64,000 nucleotides of DNA. Source: Escherichia coli (GTDB taxonomy: Bacteria; Pseudomonadota; Gammaproteobacteria; Enterobacterales; Enterobacteriaceae). Below, piece by piece: positions 10,622-50,118 of this stretch. The position numbers and the translations under genes were made by a program. The DNA is taken from NCBI RefSeq assembly GCF_009931435.1, contig NZ_CP043414.1; one strand, 5' to 3'. Below the pieces are notes generated by a model. The model was not told the origin of the DNA. It saw only the letters and a list, made by a program, of their open reading frames with translations, and searched no databases. Within the stretch, counting starts at the first letter, position 1, and the number at the start of each line of letters is the position of its first letter.

Positions 10622-13600
10622 TTACTTATTTAGCGCCGCACGAATAATTGGCCCTATTTTTTCAAACGCCATCGGCGAGATAATATCCACATGCGCGCAA
10701 TCATGACGATAGATATCCAGCTCCGCAATCCATGGTGCCCAGGCCCGTTCGGGAGTCATCCCCTCCTGAAGCGTGCGTTCGGCAACAAACAGCGTCGCTT
10801 TTCCATCAAACGGAACACTATGGGCAGTGGTCAACAAGCGCACTGCATCAGCGTAGTTGCCTTCAATGGTGGTAAACAGCTCCGTTGAAGTATTTCCCTG
10901 CTGTGCCGCCAGGAAAGCTTCACGTTCGCGGTTAATCTCCGCCAACACTTCCGGGTCCAGACCATTAGCTTCTTTTTCCTGCCAGTTCTGCGTTTCTGGC
11001 GGCCAGGTATCCAGCAAGCCAAGAAATGCCACCTGTTCGCCACGGGCACGCAGCCGTGCCGCAATCCCCTGCGCCAGCGTACCGCCCAGCGAATACCCCA
11101 GCAGGTAATAAGGGCCGTGCGGTTGTTGTTCAAGTAACGTTGCCAGATGCGCTTCGCAGACTTCATCCAGGTTTGCCGCCGTCTGCATGGGGCCATGAGG
11201 GCGCGGAGACTGGATGCCAATAATCGACCATTGAGGATCGAGATAACGCGAGAGCACGCTAAACTGCCAGGCAAAACCAGATGCTGGATGGAAACAAAAC
11301 AGCGTCGGGCCATTACCTTCACGCAACGGCAGGATGGTTTCAAATCCCATGCGCTGGGTGCTGTCTTCTTCACCATCAATAACCGTTGCCAGTTTGGCGA
11401 CGGTTGACGCGACCATCACCTGCCCCGGCGTCACCTGACGGGCAAACTGTCGACTGAGTTGTGCTGCCAGTTTCATTGCCAGTAGCGAATGACCGCCAAG
11501 CGCGAAGAAATCAGCGTCAGCATCCTGCACGTCACAACCCAGTAATGACGAGAACGCCGCGGCGATAATCGTTTCACTGCCCGCTTTCGGCGCACGCCCC
11601 GACGCTTGTGCCTTCAGTTCCGGCAACGGTAAGGCTTTGCGATCCAGCTTACCGTTGGCGCTAAGTGGTAACTGCGGCAGTTGCAGCAGAACCACGGGCA
11701 CCATATGCGGTGGCAATTTTTCGCGAAGCTGCGCCTGCAATGCGCTGGTATCCAGCGGCAGGCCCGATTGCGACACCAGATAGCCCACCAATTGACGCGC
11801 ATCCCCTCCGGTGGCTGCCGCCTGATTAATCACACAAGCGTGGGTAACTGCTTGCTCGACATCCGGCAGCGCCTGCATCACACGATCGATTTCGCCCAGT
11901 TCAATCCGCTGACCACGAATTTTTAGCTGATCATCACTACGCCCGAGATACTCCGCCGCGCCGTTATCCAGCCAGCGGGCAACATCTCCGGTACGGTACA
12001 TGCGTTCACCGGGCGCGAAAGGATCGGCAATAAAGCGGCTGGCGGTCAGATCGGGTCGTCCAAGATACCCCTGCGCCAGTTGAATACCGGTGAGATAGAG
12101 ATCGCCTGCCACACCCGGCGGCACCGGATGCATCATCGCATCGAGAATGCGCAGGCCCGTGTTCCACACCGGGTAGCCAATCGGCACACTGCTGCCGCGT
12201 ACCGCTGCAAGTTCAGCACCAAAGGCTGGATACCAGCTCACATCCACCGCCGCTTCCGTCGGGCCATAAAGATTATGTAACGGCGCGCCGGTTAACTGCT
12301 GCCATTCGCGACATAAATCGGCTGGTAAGGCTTCTCCGCTACAGAAAACCTGTTTCAACGTCGCGCAACTCTGGCGAGCGGTTTCCGACGTCAGCGAAGC
12401 AACAAACGCCGCCAGCATCGACGGCACAAAATGCGTGGTCGTTACGCCATATTCGGCAAAGAATTGTTGCATAGCGAGCGGATCGCGGTGCGCTTCCGGT
12501 TCAGCCATCACCAGTTTCGCCCCAGCAATAAACGGCCAGAAAAACTCCCACACCGAGACATCAAAACTGCACGGCGTTTTTTGGGCAACAACATCTTCGC
12601 CTGTGAGCGGGTAGTGGTTTTGCATCCATAACAGGCGGTTAACGATAGCCGTCTGCCCGACCATCACCCCTTTCGGCCTGCCGGTGGAACCGGAGGTAAA
12701 GATGATATAAGCCGTGTGGTGCGGTTGTGAAAGTTGCAGCGGCGCACTGCCCTGCGGTGTAAGCGGGGCGTTATAGCAAAGACTGGTTAAATTGGGGATA
12801 TCGCTAAAGCGCGGCAGTTGATCATCGGTGGTGATTAACAGTGACGGACGCGCATCTTCCAGCATCATTTTCAGGCGATCGTCCGGATAGCCCGTATCCA
12901 GCGGTAGCCAGGCCGCACCTGCTTCAACTATCGCATGTAGCGCCATAGTCAAAAAGACCGAGCGCGGTAGTGCCACCGCTACGCTGTCGCCAGGTTTAAC
13001 GCCGCGCTCACGCAGCAGATTCGCCAGCGCCACCACCTGCTCGCGCATTTCCCGATAGCTAAACTGGTAACGCGCATCTGCCAGCGCCGGAGCATCCGGT
13101 GTTTTTGCCGCTTGTTCTGCCACCAGCGCGCTAAGCGTAGTTTCTGGAATCTCAACCTGAGTGGCGTTGATCTGCGCCAGCTGTGCATACTCTTCTGGCA
13201 GCAGAATATCGACATCGCCGCACAACCGCGCCGGATCCGCGGCAAACTGCGCCGTCAGCATTTTCAGCCGTTCAGCATGCTTGATTAACGTTGGCTCATC
13301 GTAACGCTGTTTATTGGCGAGGATCTCAATACTCAAATCACCGTTTTCATCCGGGAAAAGGGCCAGTTCAAGGTCATTAACCGGACCGGTTGCCAGGGTA
13401 TGGGTTTGCGTCTGTACCCCCGGAATATCTAACTGATAATCAAATACTTTAATATTGAGCACCGGACCGAACAGCGGTTCCTCTCCCGCCGCGCGCCCGC
13501 TGTCACGGACAATTTGTTCGGCATCGTAACGTTGATGACGACGCATTTTTTTCAGTTGAGCGGCCAGTCGGGATGCCAGTTGCGGCAATGTTTCTTGTGC

Positions 13601-41271: not shown

Positions 41272-42033
41272 ATGCAATTGAGCAGCAGTGAACCTTGCGT
41301 GGTGATCCTGACCGAAAAAGAGGTAGAGGTAAGCGTCAATAACCATGCCACGTTTACCCTTCCGAAAAATTACCTGGCCGCCTTCGCGTGCAACAATAAC
41401 GTCATTGAACTCTCAACGTTAAATCACGTATTAATCACCCACATCAACCGTAACATCATCAACGATTATCTGTTGTTTTTAAATAAGAACTTAACCTGTG
41501 TAAAGCCCTGGTCGCGGCTGGCTACCCCGGTTATCGCTTGTCATAGCCGTACACCGGAAGTGTTCCGGCTAGCCGCCAACCACAGCAAGCAGCAACCCAG
41601 CAAACCCTGCGAAGCGGAGTTGACGCGCGCATTGCTTTTTACCGTATTGTCTAACTTTCTTGAGCAATCGCGGTTTATTGCCCTACTGATGTATATCTTA
41701 CGCAGCAGCGTCCGCGACAGCGTCTGCCGCATTATTCAAAGCGATATTCAGCATTACTGGAATCTGCGAATTGTCGCCAGTTCGCTCTGTTTAAGCCCCA
41801 GCCTGCTCAAAAAGAAATTAAAAAACGAAAATACCAGCTATAGCCAGATTGTCACAGAGTGTCGTATGCGTTACGCCGTACAGATGTTATTGATGGATAA
41901 CAAAAATATCACTCAGGTGGCACAATTGTGTGGGTATAGCAGCACGTCGTACTTTATCTCTGTTTTTAAGGCGTTTTACGGCCTGACACCGTTGAATTAT
42001 CTCGCCAAACAGCGACAAAAAGTGATGTGGTGA
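41272..42033 (+). CDS. envY: AraC-family transcriptional regulator EnvY
   Basis: 253-aa ORF with C-terminal AraC helix-turn-helix (...VAQLCGYSSTSYFISVFKAFYGLTPLNY); AT-rich. Confidence 0.85.
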   Translation: MQLSSSEPCVVILTEKEVEVSVNNHATFTLPKNYLAAFACNNNVIELSTLNHVLITHINRNIINDYLLFLNKNLTCVKPWSRLATPVIACHSRTPEVFRLAANHSKQQPSKPCEAELTRALLFTVLSNFLEQSRFIALLMYILRSSVRDSVCRIIQSDIQHYWNLRIVASSLCLSPSLLKKKLKNENTSYSQIVTECRMRYAVQMLLMDNKNITQVAQLCGYSSTSYFISVFKAFYGLTPLNYLAKQRQKVMW

Positions 42034-42546: not shown

Positions 42547-43500
42547 ATGCGGGCGAAACTTCTGGGAATAGTCCTGACAACCCCTATTGCGATCAGCTCT
42601 TTTGCTTCTACCGAGACTTTATCGTTTACTCCTGACAACATAAATGCGGACATTAGTCTTGGAACTCTGAGCGGAAAAACAAAAGAGCGTGTTTATCTAG
42701 CCGAAGAAGGAGGCCGAAAAGTCAGTCAACTCGACTGGAAATTCAATAACGCTGCAATTATTAAAGGTGCAATTAATTGGGATTTGATGCCCCAGATATC
42801 TATCGGGGCTGCTGGCTGGACAACTCTCGGCAGCCGAGGTGGCAATATGGTCGATCAGGACTGGATGGATTCCAGTAACCCCGGAACCTGGACGGATGAA
42901 AGTAGACACCCTGATACACAACTCAATTATGCCAACGAATTTGATCTGAATATCAAAGGCTGGCTCCTCAACGAACCCAATTACCGCCTGGGACTCATGG
43001 CCGGATATCAGGAAAGCCGTTATAGCTTTACAGCCAGAGGTGGTTCCTATATCTACAGTTCTGAGGAGGGATTCAGAGATGATATCGGCTCCTTCCCGAA
43101 TGGAGAAAGAGCAATCGGCTACAAACAACGTTTTAAAATGCCCTACATTGGCTTGACTGGAAGTTATCGTTATGAAGATTTTGAACTCGGTGGCACATTT
43201 AAATACAGCGGCTGGGTGGAATCATCTGATAACGATGAACACTATGACCCGGGAAAAAGAATCACTTATCGCAGTAAGGTCAAAGACCAAAATTACTATT
43301 CTGTTGCAGTCAATGCAGGTTATTACGTCACACCTAACGCAAAAGTTTATGTTGAAGGCGCATGGAATCGGGTTACGAATAAAAAAGGTAATACTTCACT
43401 TTATGATCACAATAATAACACTTCAGACTACAGCAAAAATGGAGCAGGTATAGAAAACTATAACTTCATCACTACTGCTGGTCTTAAGTACACATTTTAA
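42547..43500 (+). CDS. ompT: Outer membrane protease OmpT (omptin)
   Basis: 317-aa ORF MRAKLLGIVLTTPIAISSFASTETLSFTPDNINADISLG... ending ...ITTAGLKYTF. Confidence 0.93.
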   Translation: MRAKLLGIVLTTPIAISSFASTETLSFTPDNINADISLGTLSGKTKERVYLAEEGGRKVSQLDWKFNNAAIIKGAINWDLMPQISIGAAGWTTLGSRGGNMVDQDWMDSSNPGTWTDESRHPDTQLNYANEFDLNIKGWLLNEPNYRLGLMAGYQESRYSFTARGGSYIYSSEEGFRDDIGSFPNGERAIGYKQRFKMPYIGLTGSYRYEDFELGGTFKYSGWVESSDNDEHYDPGKRITYRSKVKDQNYYSVAVNAGYYVTPNAKVYVEGAWNRVTNKKGNTSLYDHNNNTSDYSKNGAGIENYNFITTAGLKYTF

Positions 43501-43749
43501 GAACGCCAACTAAAATTTCCCCGAGGTGAAAATCGCCCCGGGGAATAACTAGCCATTTCAATGTAACAATTAACCCTTAAAATAAACCCAGAAGGTTATT
43601 AACTAAATCACATAGAAAACCATCAATTATAGTATGTATAAAATAGGCGACAGCAACCCAATTACAAATTAATGGTTCCAGAATATCACATCAAAAAAAA
43701 CGCTGTATAATATTATAATTAACATGTAGACAACTTGTAATAAACATTA

Positions 43750-44499
43750 TCAGTCAATTGTTTTGTTTATTCCATCTGTGACGCCGATTATTTTCTCAAA
43801 ATAATGAGATGGCGTGACACCATAATAATCTTTAAATGCACATATGAAATATGAAGTACTGTTATAGCCACATTTCTGGGCTACGACATTGATAGAATAA
43901 GAGTTTGAAGTTATGAGTTTTTTTGCATACCTCATCCTAGTATCTCTCAATATTTCAGTAAATGACGTTCCTTCATCCCTTAATCTTTTTTTTATTAAAC
44001 TTTCACTCGTATAAATCAATTCCGCAATATCTTTTAAATGCCATTGCCGCTCAATATTAAAACTGATTATTCCAGTAATTTTACAGGTAAATGTATTTAT
44101 ATTTGTTAGTATAAATGAATTTACACTTTCGCGTTTTTTGAACATGGCAAGTAAGGATATACATAGTCTTTCTTTTAACCAAAGGGAGTGTGAGTCTGCT
44201 ATTTTAATCCCTTCAAACAGAGAAAAAACAAGCGATAATGGAGGTTCCTCTTCAGCAATATAGCCATTCTTATCAAGAGTAAATTTGCCAGGCAGCTCAT
44301 TATTCACGTCGATAAAAAAGGATAAACATGTTTTCTTATCTATATCAACAATTCTTAGTTTAGAGGGGCATACTGGTAACTCCCTTCTAATTTTGTCGCT
44401 TACAATAAACAATGAATTTTTTTTGAACGAGATAACTCTCCTGTTTATAATTAAATCAAATGATTGACAGATGAAAACTACGGAGCAAACATAATCCAT
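43750..44499 (-). CDS. appY: AraC-family transcriptional regulator AppY
   Basis: 249-aa [36 protein letters not shown]...; very AT-rich, with a long AT-rich upstream region (44500-45100). Confidence 0.88.
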
Positions 44500-45058
44500 C
44501 TTGCACCTATCATAAAATTAAAACAAGTTGATAGTAGTCAAATAACAACCAATTAAATACACAATCATAATCAGGATGATGTGCATTTATATTTTTATAC
44601 ACAAAATTATAGTTTGCAAATTTTAATAAATTTCATTTAAGATTAAATTATTATATGTATGTTGTTTTTTATTCTAACTTATTTCAAAGTTACATTTTTC
44701 AACGCTTACTATGCTTTTTATTAACATAAACTCACTACAACGCACCTGAAACCTCTTGCTATATATATGTCAACCGTTTGAATTTAAAATAAAAAGAGTA
44801 TCATTTTTACTTGCATTTCTTATCAAGTCACATTCAACAACAGTAAAAAAACATTATTAGAACCATTCAATTAACAAAAAACCAACATCCAGCTTGCTTA
44901 ATTTTTCTTTATTAAACGATATTGAAAATCAATTGATAAAATACATCTAAACAACCTTTTGGGGCGCAAAAGCATAACATCAAACAAACAAATAACACAC
45001 CGAAAAAACTCACAATTAATAACCTATGATATACATACTGTTTATTATGGTTGAATAA

Positions 45059-45200
45059 GCCACTCGATATCTGGTGCTACGGAAGTGTCCACACGGTTTA
45101 GCAGCACCCGATACTTTTTTCAGGCTTCCAGCAACGATCTTTCTTCCTCCGTTGCGATTTCCAGATCTACAGCATCCTGCAGTGGCGCAATATACTCACT
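45059..45200. repeat. Direct repeat copy A of the tfa 3'-end segment (partner at 46119-46260)
   Basis: About 140 bp at roughly 85-90 percent identity to 46119-46260, by manual alignment. Confidence 0.7.
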
Positions 45201-45305
45201 GAATTCCTGGATGTAGAACTGTGTAGTGACGGTCTTCCAGCCATTCGGCTCCTGCTGTATTGAAGCATACCAGGCTATTTCAATATCGCTATGCTGCGGC
45301 AGCAT
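45120..45305 (-). pseudogene. tfaX: Tail fibre assembly protein C-terminal remnant (tfaX-like)
   Basis: 61-aa ORF ending ...[23 protein letters not shown], homologous only to the C-terminal part of the intact Tfa at 46095-46679; lies in a duplicated roughly 140-bp segment. Confidence 0.7.
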
Positions 45306-45443
45306 TTAACCCCTTGTAATTCATTGCCATAATTGATTTAATTCACAAATAAAACTATAACATGGTGAAATTAATAAAAAAACACAGATGATGGGGCTAG
45401 AATTTACACACCACTTACCCTAAAGCTTTATGACTGGTGGGTT

Positions 45444-46040
45444 TTGGGAGTATCAAATCGGCTTGCATGGGGATGTCCTACAAAGGAACACCTTCTTCCA
45501 CACCTTCTTCCACACTTTCTGGAACATTTAGGTAACAACCATCTGGATATTGGTGTTGGAACTGGGTTTTACCTTACTCACGTACCTGAGAGTAGTCTGA
45601 TATCTTTAATGGATTTGAACGAAGCTAGCCTGAACGCGGCATCTACAAGGGCTGGGGAATCAAAAATTAAACATAAAATTAGCCATGATGTTTTTGAACC
45701 TTATCCCGCGGCGTTACATGGTCAATTTGATTCCATTTCCATGTCTTACCTTCTTCACTGCCTGCCTGGAAATATATCTACAAAAAGCTGTGTAATACGC
45801 AATGCGGCGCAGGCCTTAACTGACGATGGAACTCTATACGGAGCCACAATTCTTGGCGATGGAGTTGTGCACAATAGCTTCGGTCAAAAACTGATGCGCA
45901 TTTACAATCAGAAAGGCATCTTTTCAAACACAAAAGATTCCGAAGAAGGCTTAACACATATACTCTCAGAGCATTTCGAGAATGTTAAAACCAAGGTTCA
46001 AGGTACTGTAGTAATGTTTTCCGCTTCAGGAAAAAAATAG
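45444..46040 (+). CDS. ybcY: Putative class I SAM-dependent methyltransferase (YbcY-like), possibly N-terminally truncated or a pseudogene
   Basis: 198-aa ORF with glycine-rich motif I (LDIGVGTGFY); the only in-frame start is a TTG, with no upstream ATG or GTG before the stop at 45375. Confidence 0.55.
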   Translation: MGVSNRLAWGCPTKEHLLPHLLPHFLEHLGNNHLDIGVGTGFYLTHVPESSLISLMDLNEASLNAASTRAGESKIKHKISHDVFEPYPAALHGQFDSISMSYLLHCLPGNISTKSCVIRNAAQALTDDGTLYGATILGDGVVHNSFGQKLMRIYNQKGIFSNTKDSEEGLTHILSEHFENVKTKVQGTVVMFSASGKK

Positions 46041-46094
46041 CATCCAACCGCAGCATGTTCTTGCTTAAGACGTGCTGCGGCATAATCCCAATGA

Positions 46095-46679
46095 TTACTC
46101 CCTGACAGGGTTCGTAGGCCACTCAATATCAGGTGCAGTTGATGTATCAACACGGTTCAGCAACACCCGATATTTTTTCCAGGCTTCCAGCAATGAGGTT
46201 TCTTCCTCCGTTGCGATTTCCAGATCTACAGCATCCTGAAGTGGCGCAATATGCTCACTGGCTACCTGCATCAGGCTGTTTTTTGTTTCTTCCGCCTCCC
46301 GAATCCGGAACAGTTTTTCTGCTTCTGCATCTTTCACCCAGGCTGTACCGTTCCACTTCTGAAACTCCCCTTCCGGCGATAACCAGGTAACATTTTCCGG
46401 TAACGGACCGAGTTCAGAAATAAATAACGCGTCCCCTGACGCTACGTCATAAACCGTTTTACCCCGATGATCTTCAACGAGATGCCACGATGACTCATCA
46501 CTGTTGAAAACAGCCACGAAGCCAGCTGGAATATCTGGCGGTGCAATGTCGGTACTGTTTGCTGGCAGACCTGTATGAGGCGGAATATATGCGTCACCTT
46601 CACCAATAAATTCATTAGTTCCGGCCAGCAGATTATAAATTGTTATGGTCCGTGGTTGTTCACTCATTCTGAATGCCAT
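46095..46679 (-). CDS. tfa: Tail fibre assembly protein Tfa
   Basis: 194-aa [56 protein letters not shown]...; start overlaps the stf stop. Confidence 0.9.
46119..46260. repeat. Direct repeat copy B of the tfa 3'-end segment (inside the intact tfa)
   Basis: Partner of 45059-45200. Confidence 0.7.
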
Positions 46680-49600
46680 TATGCAAGCCTCACAATATAG
46701 TTAAATGCGATGTTTTTGACGGTGTTTTCCGCGTTACCAGCAGCGTTAACGGTGATGGTGTGTCCATGTGAGCCAATCGCAACCGAGTGCGTATGAGCAC
46801 CAATACCGACAGTATGTGCGTGTGCACCTGCGCTTGCTGCAGTGCCGGACAGTGAGTGGGTATGAGCACCATCTGATGATGTCTTCCCTGCATTACGAGT
46901 CTGGCCACTACCGCTTGTTGTGCTCATAATCCCCGCGCTTGGATTTGAAATCGCGGTATAACCATTAGGGAAAATGCTCGTGTTCGTGCCACCAAATGCA
47001 CCGGAACTCTTGTGTTGGTGCGCACCGGCACTATTTGCGGTCCCGCTAATACTATGGGTATGCGCCCCGGTGTTATTCGTGGATTTGGTTCCGTAATCAA
47101 ACGACGATGTGGTTTTCGTCCCCAAATCCGTACTGGATGCGCTGGCGCTGTGGGTATGCGATTTAATGCCGTCCTGTTCCTGAGACAATACGGCCCGACC
47201 ACTGGCAGGTTTGCCCTTAATCGTCCAGCCACGCATATCAGGGATCACGCCTGACGGATAAGCCGCTGCAAGTTTCGGGTAGGCAGATTTGTCAAAAGCC
47301 TGCCCCTGCATCAGGGCATAGCCAGACGGAACGGTATCTGATGGCCACGGGATTGGTGCGCCGACTGGGTAGCTTTCTGGTGGAAGATTTTTCGAGGTAT
47401 AAACTTCTGCCCAGTCTTCCTCAAAACCATAGCCATCTCTTGAGGAACGGTAGAACAGACCTCCATTTCTGTAATGCGCCTTCATCTGCAGGGTCCGGCA
47501 ACTTCCGACTCCGGTATAGAAGTTAACCAGAATATAGCTGTCGCCAGAGCGGGTGACATTGTAAGCGCCTGATTCGGCATTCCAGGGAACGCCACCATCC
47601 GCATCGGCATATGTATCCGTTGCCCTTCTGGCAAAAGCAGCCACATGCGCGGCGGTTAAAGTAATATCTTTGGAACCATCAAACTCAACACCAGAAACCA
47701 GTCTTGGCGTTTGCAGCTTTGTTGCTGTTAATGCATTACCGTTCAGACTTGCGGACAGTTTGGTTCCAATAATCAGTTCGCCGGTTGCGTTATCAATAGC
47801 AAACGGTCTTAATGTATTCCAGCCACCATAAACATCACCTTGATTGGTAAGCAGCAGGTAAGTTTTAGCGCCATCATTACGCCATAATGCACCATACTCC
47901 CCACCTATCATTCGAATCTGATTACCACCACGCGCTACAATTTCGTCTGTGGCAAAAAGTTTTTTGCACGACAAGTTATCGTTAACGATTAACGAATGAG
48001 ACTCATAAAAACCACGCCCACTCTTAAAATCAAGGATAACGTCCGCCGCGATACATTCAGTCGCCGGATTTGTTGCCCCAAACTTATAGGTCGTATCATT
48101 AACAACGAGATCAGCACCAGGTGCGGATATTGACAGGCCATCTTCGATAAACGCAAAAACAGGGAAAGCAGCGCCATCAACATAGAACACAGAGCGCAAA
48201 TCATCGCCCTTATTACTCATCATTATTGAGTGGATGGCTCGTTCATTGTTTTGATATTGCCAGAACATTCCATAAGCATAACGCCCCCTGTCAGTCCAGC
48301 CACCAGGCATAACAAATCCGTTAAACTCGCAGTTATTCATCGGATCGCCTGCGGTTCGCGTTGCCGTGGTGATAATGACCCTTGATGCCAGTTCGCTTAC
48401 TGAGCCAGCAGAACGCATAACAACAACAGGGTAATATTTTCCAGATGTTGCACCTGCAGGAGCGTTAACCCGCACATAACGCATACCACGCTTATCAGCA
48501 AAGTCTGTTTTACTGACCGCGTTAATGTTGTTCAGGAAGCGTCCCTTATCGGGTATATCAGCGCCGTTCTGGTCTTTCTGCAGACGTTTCTCTGCATTGT
48601 CATAGGCTGATTTTACTGCCTTTGGCGTTGCCGCCAGCGTTTCAGACGTACTGTTGGTCGCACTGCTGAGCTGTACTACCCCCTTTTTCGTCGTGCTCGC
48701 ATCCTCAAGCGCCACGGCGGATGCAATATCCTCTGCCCGTTTTGCCGCTGTCTCGGCGCGCGTTGCCGCGGATTCCGCCGTACTTTTGCTCTGAGCTGCC
48801 GCCGTCGCACTGCCAGCTGCCTCTGTCGCCTTCGTGGATGCCGTCGTGGCGCTGCTCTTCGCTGCTGACGCTTGTCTGGTCGCCTCATCTTTTGAAGCAG
48901 ACGCAGATGATGCCGATGACGCCGCCGAACTGGCTGACGATGCGGCAGCCGTTTTTGAGGATTCTGCGCTGGTTTCCGACGCTTTCGCGTTCGTTTCGGA
49001 TGTCTTCGCTGCGGAAGCAGAACTCGCTGCTGCGCTGGCCTGTTCAGTGGCTTCGCCAGCCTTCGTTGTGGCTGTTGAAGCAGACGATGCGGCACTTTCT
49101 GCCGACTTTCCGGCAGCGGTGGCACTGGCTGAGGCCTGCCCGGCACTTGTTGACGCGGCGCTGGCAGATGATGCAGCCGCTGTTTTTGAGTCTGCTGCTG
49201 CGGAGGCACTCTGTTCCGCTGCCGTCTCAGAAGACTTAGCGTTCGTCTCGGACGTTTTTGCCGCCTTCGCGGAATTTCCTGCCGCCGTTGCCGAGGAAGC
49301 TGCGCTACTGGCGCTCGAGGATGCGTTCGTTTCTGATGATTTCGCTGCCTCTTTTGAGGCCGCCGCATCCCTGGCTGAGGTGGCAGCTTCTGACGCTTTC
49401 CTGGTCGCGGTGGATGCAGAAGTGGCTGCTGATTGTTGTGACGCTGCGGCATTCGTTTCTGACGTTTTCGCCGCACCGGCACTGGTGGCCGCCGCGCTTT
49501 TTGAGGACTCTGCAGCGGCAGCACTTTTTTCCGCTTCAGTGGCCTTTGCTGATGCCGTTCCTGCGCTGGAAGATGCTGACTGAGCCGACGACGCGGCCTG

Positions 49601-50086
49601 TCCGGCTGACGTGCTGGCTGCGCGTGCTGAGCCTGCAGCATCAGTCGCATGGGTTGCCGCCTCACTGGCAGATGTGCTGGCATCGCCGGCTGACTTCTTC
49701 GCGGCTGCCGTGTTTTGTGCCACCGCGGACGCGTTACGCGCCACCTCTTCCACCATCAGTTCAAAACGGCGCAGAGCCTCCGGACGGGCATCATCCTCCG
49801 TCATGGCACCGAGAAAATCATTCAGCGTACCGGGTCGGGAATCTTCATACACGGTGATGGTCCCGGCATGTGACGGCGGGAATCCTTCCACCAACAGAAT
49901 AACGCTGTACTGACCGTACTCAACGTCCATGCTGTAACGCCCGGCTTCATCCGGATTTTCTGAGGCCAGCGTGTTCACCACCACCGCGGTGCTGTTACGT
50001 TTTGCTTTCAGCTGGATTGTGCAGTTCTGTACCGGTTTTCCTGTGCCGTCTTTCAGTACACCTGAAATCTTTACTGCCATATTCAC
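46679..50086 (-). CDS. stf: Side tail fibre protein Stf (lambda Stf / StfR-like)
   Basis: 1135-aa [40 protein letters not shown]...; long Ala/Ser/Thr-rich repetitive shaft; C-terminal His-rich GAHTHS-type motifs and ...[13 protein letters not shown]. Confidence 0.9.
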
Positions 50087-50096
50087 CCCACAAAAA

Positions 50097-50118
50097 AGCC
50101 CGCCTGAACAGGCGGGCT
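50097..50118 (-). terminator. Intrinsic terminator hairpin between lom and stf
   Basis: agcccgcct / aggcgggct stem with a 4-nt loop, preceded on the plus strand by aaaaaa (a U-tract on the minus-strand transcript). Confidence 0.6.

Follow-up and report, generated by a model that had tools for sequence, protein, structure and literature searches.

Duplicated tfa 3' ends around a decayed methyltransferase gene at the tfaD–ybcY–tfaX corner of a DLP12-type prophage in Escherichia coli

In phages such as lambda (stf/tfa), P2 (H/G) and Mu (S/U), tail-fibre specificity cassettes are mosaic and are exchanged through conserved flanks. The invertible tail-fibre segments of Mu (G), P1 (C) and e14 (P) have inverted crossover sites and an adjacent serine invertase. 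Lambdoid phages also carry morons, autonomous promoter-gene-terminator cargo units of which lom and bor are examples. DLP12 has been described as the most prevalent prophage of E. coli (PMC10057817). The tail fibre assembly protein Tfa binds the fibre through a variable N-domain and trimerises through a conserved C-terminal helical domain (PMC9608196).

We analyzed a stretch of 64,000 nucleotides of E. coli DNA (contig NZ_CP043414.1, assembly GCF_009931435.1), hereafter the window, in which a tfa-related remnant and an intact tfa gene lie on either side of an oppositely oriented methyltransferase-like frame (Table 1). The locus is the annotated tfaD–ybcY–tfaX corner of the DLP12 prophage and as such is already known; from 44400 to 46533 the window is 99.4% identical to the K-12 locus. 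It is probably a decayed relic, located where a lambdoid prophage of the DLP12 type carries its cargo, with stf and tfa still intact.

Table 1. Positions in the window of genes, pseudogene parts, repeats and lesions at the tfa–ybcY–tfaX locus.
Feature	Position	Strand	Basis and remarks
appY, cargo gene on the outer side of tfaX	43750-44499	-	ORF list; related loci
tfaX pseudogene, 86-codon frame	45045-45305	-	phrog_2341, RefSeq, ORF list
Direct repeat copy A, Tfa C-domain part of tfaX	45056-45212	-	Repeat search, alignment
tfaX 3' part from a second, appY-linked tfa scar	45059-45128	-	Divergence pattern
tfaX non-Tfa leader, 31 codons	45213-45305	-	No Tfa similarity
Promoter-like region of ybcY	45306-45361	+	Promoter scan, published RpoD site
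ybcY pseudogene (class I SAM-dependent methyltransferase)	45362-46040	+	Extent per RefSeq for the identical K-12 allele
Lesion 1, 2-bp deletion in ybcY	45373-45383	+	AAT+A7+C vs A-ATG-A8-C of intact alleles; deletion between 45375 and 45376
Residual 198-codon frame from TTG	45444-46040	+	ORF list
Lesion 2, 12-nt tandem duplication, ACCTTCTTCCAC twice	45490-45513	+	Inserts LLPH upstream of motif I
Lesion 3, T to C, F121S	45745	+	Also in K-12; at least 90% conservation across the family at this position
Hairpin between the convergent stops of ybcY (46040) and tfa (46095)	46048-46080		RNA fold
tfa, intact (tail fibre assembly protein, 194 aa)	46095-46679	-	ORF list; next to stf, immediately on its downstream side
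Direct repeat copy B, 3' end of intact tfa, conserved C-terminal helical domain	46115-46271	-	Repeat search, blastn
Match to Rfam RF02111 'IS009', in sense within the tfa ORF	46138-46336	-	227.8 bits, gathering score 117 (cmscan)
stf, side tail fibre gene, 1135 aa	46679-50086	-	ORF list; served by the intact tfa; 'phage tail protein' in related loci

A repeat search identified one two-copy direct family, copies A and B, with a length of 157 nt, 85% identity and a spacing of 1059. Pairwise alignment shows that identity collapses outside these limits (blastn E ∼3e-47). The initial annotation had noticed a direct duplication of roughly 140 bp at this place, which is confirmed here, although its limits (45059-45200 and 46119-46260) were slightly short and one base off register. 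Both copies read as Tfa on the minus strand and encode the conserved C-terminal domain, their peptides containing SE(H/Y), differing further at (T/R) and (T/V) and ending in APDIEW. The copies differ at 18 of 141 nucleotides, with 12.5 synonymous against 4.5 non-synonymous differences (pN/pS 0.11, p 7e-6), and because the differences are mostly synonymous the two appear to have diverged as working alleles. In L004 and L006, prophages at the ompW locus, the duplicated unit is longer and corresponds to window positions 46046-46271 (227 nt, 89%), the hairpin included.

The gene that ends in copy B is a full-length, two-domain Tfa of the lambda type that adjoins stf on its downstream side. Its residues 1-192 match phrog_105 ('tail fiber assembly', E 3e-101), and the annotation of the near-identical GPEC1446 locus lists it as intact ('tail fiber assembly protein').

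The gene that contains copy A has a more composite structure. The frame of tfaX matches phrog_2341 (88 aa, E 4e-42) but is cut by a TGA at 45120-45122 where intact copies have TGG, and RefSeq describes it as 'internal stop; incomplete; missing N-terminus'. Similarity to Tfa begins only at tfaX residue ∼27-32, equivalent to Tfa residue ∼132, so that the N-terminal fibre-binding domain is absent; the C-domain has 78% identity to Tfa over 60 aa and is interrupted by the TGA here, but is uninterrupted in many other loci. The leader matches only the small ORF families phrog_2341 and phrog_3893. A proposed homology of the leader to the middle of the Tfa of Salmonella phage SEN1 was discarded, the similarity being weak and gapped. 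The junction between leader and Tfa-derived part, 45212/45213, is common to every tfaX copy examined (74 plus 7 IMG/VR loci, and the related loci L001-L004, L007 and L008). The Tfa-derived part is itself not uniform: compared with tfaX of the ompW type, the window differs by 27% in 45059-45128 and by 2.8% in the rest (Fisher p 7e-8), and the same 45059-45128 segment matches, but for one difference, the scar found ahead of appY in loci of the L100 type. tfaX is therefore a mosaic of two Tfa-derived scars. The left copy had been described as a tfaX remnant; it is a remnant of a tfa gene, but the non-Tfa leader, the nonsense codon and the mosaic structure do not fit a simple truncation.

Between the copies, on the opposite strand, the ORF list confirms the 198-aa frame with the DIGVGTG motif and no ATG or GTG start that had been reported before. 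The TTG at which it opens corresponds to Leu25 of the intact protein, and no in-frame ATG or GTG occurs upstream of this TTG before the TAA at 45375-45377. A Shine-Dalgarno-like GGTGG lies 3 nt before the TTG. The initial annotation had named an intact upstream start as a finding against its reading and a search for an upstream-extended intact homologue as a check, and such homologues do exist: intact members, among them the 218-aa alleles WP_000239881.1 and WP_000742375.1, have 218-222 aa and start with an ATG 20-24 codons further upstream, the family norm being 218 aa counted from the second ATG. Alignment with three intact alleles shows that the window carries a 2-bp deletion (AATGAAAAAAAAC to AATAAAAAAAC), which removes the conserved ATG, shifts the frame and leaves the upstream ATG (45362) out of frame with the methyltransferase. 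Among the scorable IMG/VR loci, 58 of 60 have the ATG followed by A8, one has the allele of the window and one has ATG followed by A7. With a 50-nt blastn query the deletion allele was matched exactly in 379 of 3826 E. coli records with this region, so that ∼90% of the records differ from it, and those sampled among the latter are 2 nt longer at this site; an earlier 40-nt megablast query for the deletion allele had found nothing, being too short or masked.

Two more lesions add to the deletion. The 12-nt tandem duplication occurs only in the window, the best match in 3839 E. coli genomes (98.5%) having a 12-nt gap in its place; apart from this insertion ybcY is that of K-12, F121S included. 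The TTG product would lack the invariant residues Y12, P14, L17, Y20, D21, W22, W23 and V24, and the window thus has neither an open frame from the family start nor the YxPxxLxxYDWWVL segment of a functional gene. RefSeq flags the same ybcY allele as 'frameshifted' in K-12 and in GPEC1446. The TTG frame is a residue of the K-12 'ybcY' pseudogene and not a gene with an odd start. Since ybcY and tfaX have both decayed by lesions, the window would be expected to produce neither a functional methyltransferase from the TTG frame nor a chaperone from tfaX. The earlier question of whether the TTG start is used is thereby answered as far as the status of the gene is concerned; the lack of expression is what the sequence suggests.

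The intact homologue matches the Pfam families Methyltransf_12, 23, 25 and 11 (E 6e-9 to 6e-5) and, over residues 5-222, phrog_2132 (length 218, E 8e-157), and the LDIGVGTG in the frame of the window agrees with the D/E-x-G-x-G-x-G signature of Rossmann-type class I SAM-dependent methyltransferases. Only sub-threshold matches (CpaM, RquA) were obtained with NCBIfam, and no specific NCBIfam or Pfam subfamily was found. An AF2 model of the intact homologue (pLDDT 90) has an alternating beta/alpha core, and its Foldseek matches (E 1e-9 to 7e-12, TM 0.55-0.69) place the predicted fold with a bacterial PE N-methyltransferase (8ys9), JHAMT (7ec0), PfPMT and UbiG, although identity to these small-molecule and lipid class I methyltransferases is only 13-21%. 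At the sequence level there are weak matches to UbiG and JHAMT, and a PDB sequence search reached only E ∼1e-3. Judged by its fold neighbours, which are generic small-molecule methyltransferases, the protein is not a DNA methyltransferase. In Enterobacter and Yersinia the gene stands alone on the chromosome, and window positions 45312-46011 align with the chromosomal Enterobacter gene at 68%, including 62 nt upstream of the start; these homologies support a probable chromosomal origin for the cargo.

The spacer between ybcY and tfaX contains two promoter-like elements detected by scanning, TTAACC-16-CATAAT (45306-45333) and TTGATT-17-TATAAC (45333-45361). The second is exactly the site in the K-12 ybcY<>tfaX spacer that was recovered by SELEX with RpoD holoenzyme, with H-NS (Shimada et al. 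2014, PMC3946193). At the other end of the gene, the hairpin has a folding energy of −22.1 kcal/mol (z −4.3) on the plus strand and −22.7 (z −2.9) on the minus strand. It was not among the calls of a search for canonical intrinsic terminators, and since it has no canonical T-tract a role as terminator is only putative.

Related loci show where exchange has occurred. In 33 of 71 informative loci the right-hand homology with the window ends inside the repeat (46189, 46214, 46240), and in 4 of 71 it ends at the hairpin; further right, the stf N-terminus is conserved again. ybcY and tfaX behave as one unit behind various fibre modules, including in phage records from ECOR strains, and in phage PhiR68_2 they stand together behind a different tfa-pin-ynaE module. 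Downstream of tfa, relatives carry the methyltransferase, a pin recombinase, or a reverse transcriptase with a SLATT pair.

From these data we infer the following order and mechanism of events. A gene for a small-molecule-type class I methyltransferase would have been acquired, with its own promoter region, from an enterobacterial chromosome, and would have settled downstream of tfa as a self-contained moron, convergent with the late operon and with the hairpin between the stops. A single illegitimate join would then have linked the upstream flank of the methyltransferase gene to the 3'-terminal ∼160-180 nt, with the hairpin, of another tfa allele; tfaX, and hence the direct repeat, would be its product. 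Because the repeat codes for the conserved trimerisation domain, it is common to otherwise different tfa alleles, and homologous crossovers would recur in it. Those on the right side would exchange the specificity cassette (stf C-terminus and tfa N-domain), and those on the left side the downstream cargo (appY-ompT, hydrolase-ompT or ompW-locus remnants). Decay would have followed in the K-12 lineage, to which the allele of the window belongs; ybcY was hit by the 2-bp deletion and by F121S, tfaX by the TGG to TGA change, and the 12-nt tandem duplication, confined to the window, was probably the last step. The initial proposal of a module-exchange scar with a trapped cargo gene thus holds for exchange at the conserved tfa 3' end and for a cargo of chromosomal origin, but the gene was not trapped by the present tfa.

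An alternative origin of the repeat is an insertion-duplication in situ, in which circular or misaligned DNA with the methyltransferase gene and a piece of the same tfa was integrated through one crossover, of the Campbell type or by unequal exchange, doubling the tfa 3' end and hairpin, and the outer copy then decayed. The ompW-locus unit, a clean 227 nt with the hairpin that reaches to within a few bases of the ybcY stop codon, has such a single-crossover architecture, and a search of IMG/VR with two exact 26-mers found no intact tfa whose 3' end is of the tfaX type, only more tfaX copies or shorter scars. We nonetheless consider this origin unlikely: the copies are 13-15% different with a pN/pS of 0.11, whereas neutral decay should be mostly non-synonymous, and the intact tfa alleles of other loci are far closer to one another here than to tfaX. 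Since the donor allele is unsampled, an old duplication in situ with both copies under selection retains a small probability. One may also ask whether tfaX, where it is intact, is a genuine 'mini-Tfa' of 88-89 aa, consisting of the trimerisation domain only, read through from the late operon and modulating or poisoning fibre assembly. An open frame of 85-89 aa with the natural Tfa C-terminus is present in ∼50 of 74 IMG/VR loci, the family has its own PHROG (phrog_2341), AAGGGG lies 4 nt before the tfaX ATG, and tfaX is found in phage genome records from ECOR strains, phages of the PhiR30_1 type having an intact copy for 89 aa. In 13 loci, however, the last ∼10 residues of the domain are replaced by 26 unrelated residues, ∼9 loci have nonsense or frameshift changes, and PGAP treats all tfaX copies as fragments; the non-synonymous to synonymous ratio of the leader, ∼0.5, is indistinguishable from neutrality, in counts with low diversity that are inflated by one aberrant haplotype. 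We therefore hold a mini-Tfa to be quite improbable, and it would in any case be inoperative in the window, whose tfaX has the stop codon. Extended further, the idea would make the intact 88-89-codon tfaX a real late gene whose product forms mixed trimers with full-length Tfa, tuning assembly or acting against the fibres of lambdoid phages that are co-resident or superinfecting, and the C-domain segments on either side of ybcY would be kept for two uses, as coding sequence and as handles for exchanging cargo by recombination; this is speculative, and we give it little credence.

Residual expression of ybcY in this strain, either from the TTG or from the ATG at 45362 with the frame restored in the A7 run by a +1 shift or by transcriptional slippage, would yield MVKLIKKNTDDG... 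or an M/L-GVSNR... terminus. The 198 open codons with motif I intact, the GGTGG before the TTG, the A7 run between the ATG and the main frame and the RpoD-binding site in the spacer would all be in keeping with it, and because the K-12 spacer binds RNA polymerase in vitro and the GGTGG is present, a trace of truncated YbcY product is conceivable. But the TTG product would be without the invariant YxPxxLxxYDWWV and further damaged by F121S and the four-residue insertion, and H-NS binding has been noted at the spacer. The ATG at 45362 is ACG in intact alleles of the Nissle type, and since the predicted −10 element ends at 45361, transcripts are expected to start after this ATG, which would fall outside them. 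Runs of A7 are, moreover, short for efficient slippage, and we judge expression of ybcY very unlikely. Just as improbable is a reading of the repeat copies as genes for the sRNA 'IS009'. The match inside tfa scores well above the gathering threshold of RF02111, and a second one on tfaX (45079-45282, 111.3 bits) falls just below it, but both lie in sense within tfa coding sequence, the divergence between the copies is codon-structured, and of the few base pairs in the model several are disrupted in copy A. All that the score tells us is that the sequence behind the RF02111 model came from tfa, and there is no sign of an independent RNA gene. Duplicated tfa ends beside a fibre gene, and the pin recombinase found in this position in relatives, also bring to mind the inversion switches for tail fibres known from Mu (G), P1 (C) and e14 (P). 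The repeats are direct and not inverted, which already refutes an invertible segment; no recombinase gene lies between stf and appY (ORF list, 44500-50100), and no significant inverted repeats were found, so that such a switch has next to no probability. A 30-nt inverted repeat bracketing appY (43618-43647 and 45023-45052) was at chance level, 31 of 100 composition-preserving shuffles giving an equal one.

The site just downstream of tfa is a cargo hot spot, and the locus offers a worked example of the conserved Tfa C-domain as a recombination handle that leaves stacked scars. The apparent non-canonical TTG gene should not be taken further as a candidate, the real gene having 218 aa and being intact in ∼90% of the E. 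coli genomes in which it occurs.

The closest described system is K-12 tfaD'-ybcY'-tfaX', near appY, ompT and envY, which shares with the window the gene order, the 2-bp deletion, F121S and the tfaX TGA. It differs in that tfaD is truncated at the equivalent of window position 46533 by a deletion that fuses it to the terminase gene, whereas tfa and stf of the window are full length, and in that K-12 ybcY is without the 12-nt tandem duplication. As a candidate moron, ybcY is one non-phage gene, set at the end of the late operon, that has a putative promoter region of its own, would be transcribed independently and has ordinary chromosomal homologues elsewhere; unlike a typical moron, it is inactivated in this strain, and the hairpin that it shares with tfa, a part of the tfa-derived duplicated unit and apparently not brought along by the gene, is its putative terminator. 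As in mosaic tail-fibre cassettes, the stf N-terminus and the tfa C-terminus are conserved around a variable middle, but at this locus a 3' fragment has been left behind in direct orientation, with cargo between the copies, and has been re-used as a crossover site.

The locus lies at the right-hand, cargo-bearing end of an E. coli lambdoid prophage of the DLP12 type and runs in the orientation opposite to the K-12 map. The initial annotation had described a direct repeat flanking a methyltransferase-like ORF with a TTG start, and had read the arrangement as the scar of a tail fiber module exchange around a cargo gene. The repeat was confirmed, with slightly wider limits, as two 157-nt copies (45056-45212 in tfaX and 46115-46271 at the 3′ end of tfa) at 85% identity and a spacing of 1059 nt (blastn E ∼3e-47); both lie on the minus strand and, in Tfa sense, specify the C-terminal ∼50 residues of the protein. 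Also confirmed were the 198-codon frame (45444-46040, +) with its TTG start and LDIGVGTG motif, and the lack of an in-frame ATG or GTG upstream of 45444, back to the stop at 45375-45377. However, intact, upstream-extended homologs of 218 to 222 aa occur in other E. coli, and the ORF is the residue of a pseudogene, ybcY, and not a TTG-initiated gene.

Genes and promoter-like sites around the repeat
Feature	Coordinates	Strand	Sequence
envY	41272-42033	+	
ompT	42547-43500	+	
appY	43750-44499	-	
tfaX	45045-45305	-	
second promoter-like site	45306-45333		TTAACC-16-CATAAT
promoter-like site, ybcY upstream	45333-45361		TTGATT-17-TATAAC
ybcY	45362-46040	+	
tfa	46095-46679	-	
stf (side tail fiber gene)	46679-50086	-	

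Intact ybcY in other E. coli encodes 222 aa, beginning MVKLMKKNTDDGAKIYTPLTLKLYDWWVLG; in alleles such as that of Nissle 1917, ACG replaces the first ATG, giving a protein of 218 aa that starts MKKNTDDG. The true start is likely the second ATG, since PHROG phrog_2132 and most homologs in Salmonella, Citrobacter, Enterobacter, Klebsiella, Yersinia, Erwinia, and Pantoea are also 218 aa long. This codon is destroyed by a 2-bp deletion between 45375 and 45376 (in the alignment, the window, K-12 and strain GPEC1446, near-identical at this locus, read AAT--AAAAAAAC and three intact alleles read AATGAAAAAAAAC), which also shifts the upstream ATG (45362) out of frame, leaving it a reading frame that ends after 9 codons. 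F121S (T-to-C at 45745), common to the window and K-12, changes a residue that at least 90% of family members share, and a 12-nt tandem duplication (ACCTTCTTCCAC twice, at 45490-45513) adds LLPH in frame. The duplication was not found in K-12, GPEC1446, or any of 3839 E. coli genomes carrying ybcY, the best of which reaches 98.5% identity over 45300-46100, exactly the 12-nt gap; it represents either strain-specific slippage or an assembly artifact.

The TTG corresponds to Leu25 of intact YbcY, and a product begun there would miss Y12, P14, L17, Y20, D21, W22, W23, and V24, which are invariant in 20 family members down to 56% identity. That a useful protein is still expressed, from the TTG or via slippage on the A7 run, is unlikely, because this N-terminal motif is missing, further lesions are present and, with the predicted -10 element reaching to 45361, transcripts would begin downstream of the ATG at 45362.

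Among 60 scorable prophage contigs from IMG/VR, ATG followed by A8 is present in 58, with a complete 218-codon frame in 53 of these, and the K-12-type deletion and ATG followed by A7 occur in one contig each. The region is present in 3821/5426 RefSeq complete E. coli genomes; 379 records, many of them K-12 laboratory derivatives, match the window's 50-nt allele exactly, and the remaining E. coli records, as sampled, have an aligned stretch 2 nt longer. The 2-bp deletion is a minority, lineage-specific lesion adjoining a homopolymer run. Some E. coli carry in-frame ybcY variants (proteins P0001, P0014, P0015, and P0017): one allele, of 265 aa, contains an internal tandem duplication of 47 residues, and others lack 24 internal residues, in one case including motif I. 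Repeat-mediated indels thus seem to arise readily in ybcY, which fits weak constraint in E. coli.

Pfam assigns an intact homolog to generic class I domains only (Methyltransf_12, 23, 25, and 11), and NCBIfam and PDB sequence searches returned nothing specific. An AlphaFold2 model of the intact enzyme (mean pLDDT 90) has as its best Foldseek neighbors small-molecule or lipid methyltransferases (TM-scores 0.55-0.69, identity 13-21%), including a bacterial phosphatidylethanolamine N-methyltransferase (8ys9), juvenile hormone acid methyltransferase, Plasmodium phosphoethanolamine methyltransferase, SgvM, CysG, and UbiG, so the predicted fold does not appear DNA-methylase-like. Enterobacter hormaechei and Yersinia carry the ortholog on the chromosome as a solitary gene with non-phage neighbors. 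Window 45312-46011 aligns with the Enterobacter gene at 68% from 62 nt upstream of the start, which suggests that ybcY was captured along with its promoter region. In K-12, the ybcY<>tfaX spacer holds an RpoD-holoenzyme SELEX site with exactly the TTGATT-17-TATAAC of this region and is also listed for H-NS binding (Shimada et al. 2014, PMC3946193). With 24-27% G+C, the appY upstream region beside the tfaX stop (44500-45050) is strongly AT-rich, in keeping with reports of H-NS binding in this neighborhood.

The tfaX frame spans 86 codons and is broken by a TGA at 45120-45122; intact copies elsewhere have TGG at that codon and ORFs of 88-89 aa (phrog_2341, 88 aa, E 4e-42). Resemblance to Tfa begins only at residue ∼27-32 (78% identity over 60 aa), and no Tfa counterpart was found for the first ∼31 codons (45213-45305). 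Tfa consists of a variable N-terminal fiber-binding domain and a conserved C-terminal helical trimerization domain (PMC9608196); what tfaX retains, and thus what the repeat contains, is the conserved domain alone. Compared with tfaX of the ompW-locus type, the window copy differs at 5/177 nt in the 5′ part and 19/70 nt in the 3′ part (Fisher p 7e-8), and one base, the TGA, separates the 3′ part from the shorter tfa scar that other prophages of DLP12 type carry (L100, L102, L106, L109, and L098), where appY-ompT is joined directly to a different fiber module at window 45155. These loci carry other fiber genes with ∼90-aa putative chaperones; they have kept no more than ∼100 nt of the tfa scar, in which TGG is intact, and lack ybcY. 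The comparison shows tfaX to be a mosaic, and the outer repeat a composite of two scars. C-terminal tails also differ among tfaX copies (PANPVRE, PTSPAE, PVAPQ, PEL, PEEPDTM, and LIQP), and 13 loci in which a hydrolase gene stands in for appY have an unrelated 26-residue tail. In one IMG/VR contig (L093, ∼11410-12496) the terminase large subunit frame continues in frame into tfaX at '...AWYASIQQEPNG', a large deletion from the packaging genes through to ybcY that is more extreme than the K-12 DLP12 deletion.

The 5′ junction of tfaX (45212/45213) is identical in every copy examined (74 IMG/VR loci retrieved with a junction 24-mer, a further 7 retrieved by means of an internal 26-mer, and loci L001-L004, L007, and L008 from RefSeq and phage genomes), which indicates one founding event. 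Within the window, the repeat copies differ at 18/141 nt over 47 shared codons, with 12.5 synonymous and 4.5 non-synonymous differences (pN/pS 0.11; binomial p against neutrality 7e-6). This low ratio indicates that most of the divergence arose while both sequences encoded working protein, and the pattern fits two different tfa alleles recombined together. An in situ insertion-duplication would accord with our finding no intact tfa allele with tfaX-type 3′ sequence in exact 26-mer scans of IMG/VR, but the synonymous-biased divergence does not fit a duplicate decaying in place, and we consider such an origin improbable.

Prophages integrated at ompW, comprising L004, L006, and the majority of the IMG/VR loci, have a longer duplicated unit of 227 nt, equivalent to window 46046-46271, which takes in the complete tfa end and the hairpin after it (46048-46080; -22 kcal/mol, with z-scores of -4.3 and -2.9 for the two strands). 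Rightwards from ybcY, in 71 loci (3/74 were left out, their homology running off the contig end), homology ends inside the repeat at 46189, 46214, or 46240 in 33, at the hairpin (46080) in 4, at 46884 in the stf C-terminus in 20, and at scattered other sites in the remainder; similarity returns at the stf N-terminus (∼49731-50100). The breakpoints form the classical mosaic pattern, in which a variable specificity cassette (stf C-terminus and tfa N-domain) is swapped via conserved flanks, the repeat being one of them. In phage PhiR68_2, the interval from stf to ybcY holds another tfa together with a pin recombinase and ynaE, with ybcY, hairpin, and tfaX unchanged; the methyltransferase and tfaX thus travel as a unit, around which fiber modules are replaced on one side and cargo on the other. 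The reading as a module-exchange scar was broadly right, with the cargo now seen as a probable captured chromosomal gene with its own promoter, dead in this lineage, and the repeat as probably persisting because the conserved Tfa domain serves as a crossover handle.

An invertible switch was excluded by the direct orientation of the repeat and the lack of a recombinase, and a 30-nt inverted repeat on either side of appY is no better than expected by chance. Both copies of the direct repeat score against Rfam RF02111 ('IS009') (46138-46336, -, 227.8 bits; 45079-45282, -, 111.3 bits; gathering 117); the matches are tfa coding sequence in sense and are unlikely to be RNA genes, and the family appears to be modeled on the 3′ part of that sequence. 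A 45-codon GTG ORF (45985-46122, -) overlapping the 3′ ends of ybcY and tfa, labeled 'nucleocapsid protein' (WP_071592174.1) or 'hypothetical protein' by RefSeq in related genomes, is in all likelihood a false gene call across the hairpin region. Several long spurious ORFs also arise in other frames of the stf interior (48600-49850, -), a long Ala/Ser/Thr-rich quasi-repetitive stretch with ∼60-62% G+C and strongly negative AT skew. The site just downstream of tfa holds varied cargo in other prophages, namely a SLATT-domain protein with a reverse transcriptase (a retron-like defense pair), pinQ, or pin with ynaE (L018 1012-2911; L017 2300-2890; L007 3588-4761), and looks like a cargo or defense hot spot. 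In the ECOR-derived phage records PhiR68_2 (L007) and PhiR30_1 (L008), ybcY, tfaX, appY (or an alpha/beta hydrolase), and ompT lie inside the deposited genome; if the ends of these records match the actual ends of the phages, ompT would be cargo that the phage carries.

Standard annotation already covers these genes, their status as pseudogenes, and their place in DLP12. RefSeq labels tfaX in K-12 and GPEC1446 'tail fiber assembly protein, internal stop; incomplete; missing N-terminus' and ybcY 'class I SAM-dependent methyltransferase, frameshifted', and both are treated as DLP12 genes in the literature, where DLP12 has been called the most prevalent prophage of E. coli (PMC10057817). The lesion map, allele frequencies, and stacked-scar history are refinements, not discoveries. 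The window is 99.4% identical to K-12 MG1655 over 44400-46533 and 99.1% identical to GPEC1446 over 44400-47000; tfa is truncated in K-12 only, whereas in the window and GPEC1446 it is full length, as is stf.
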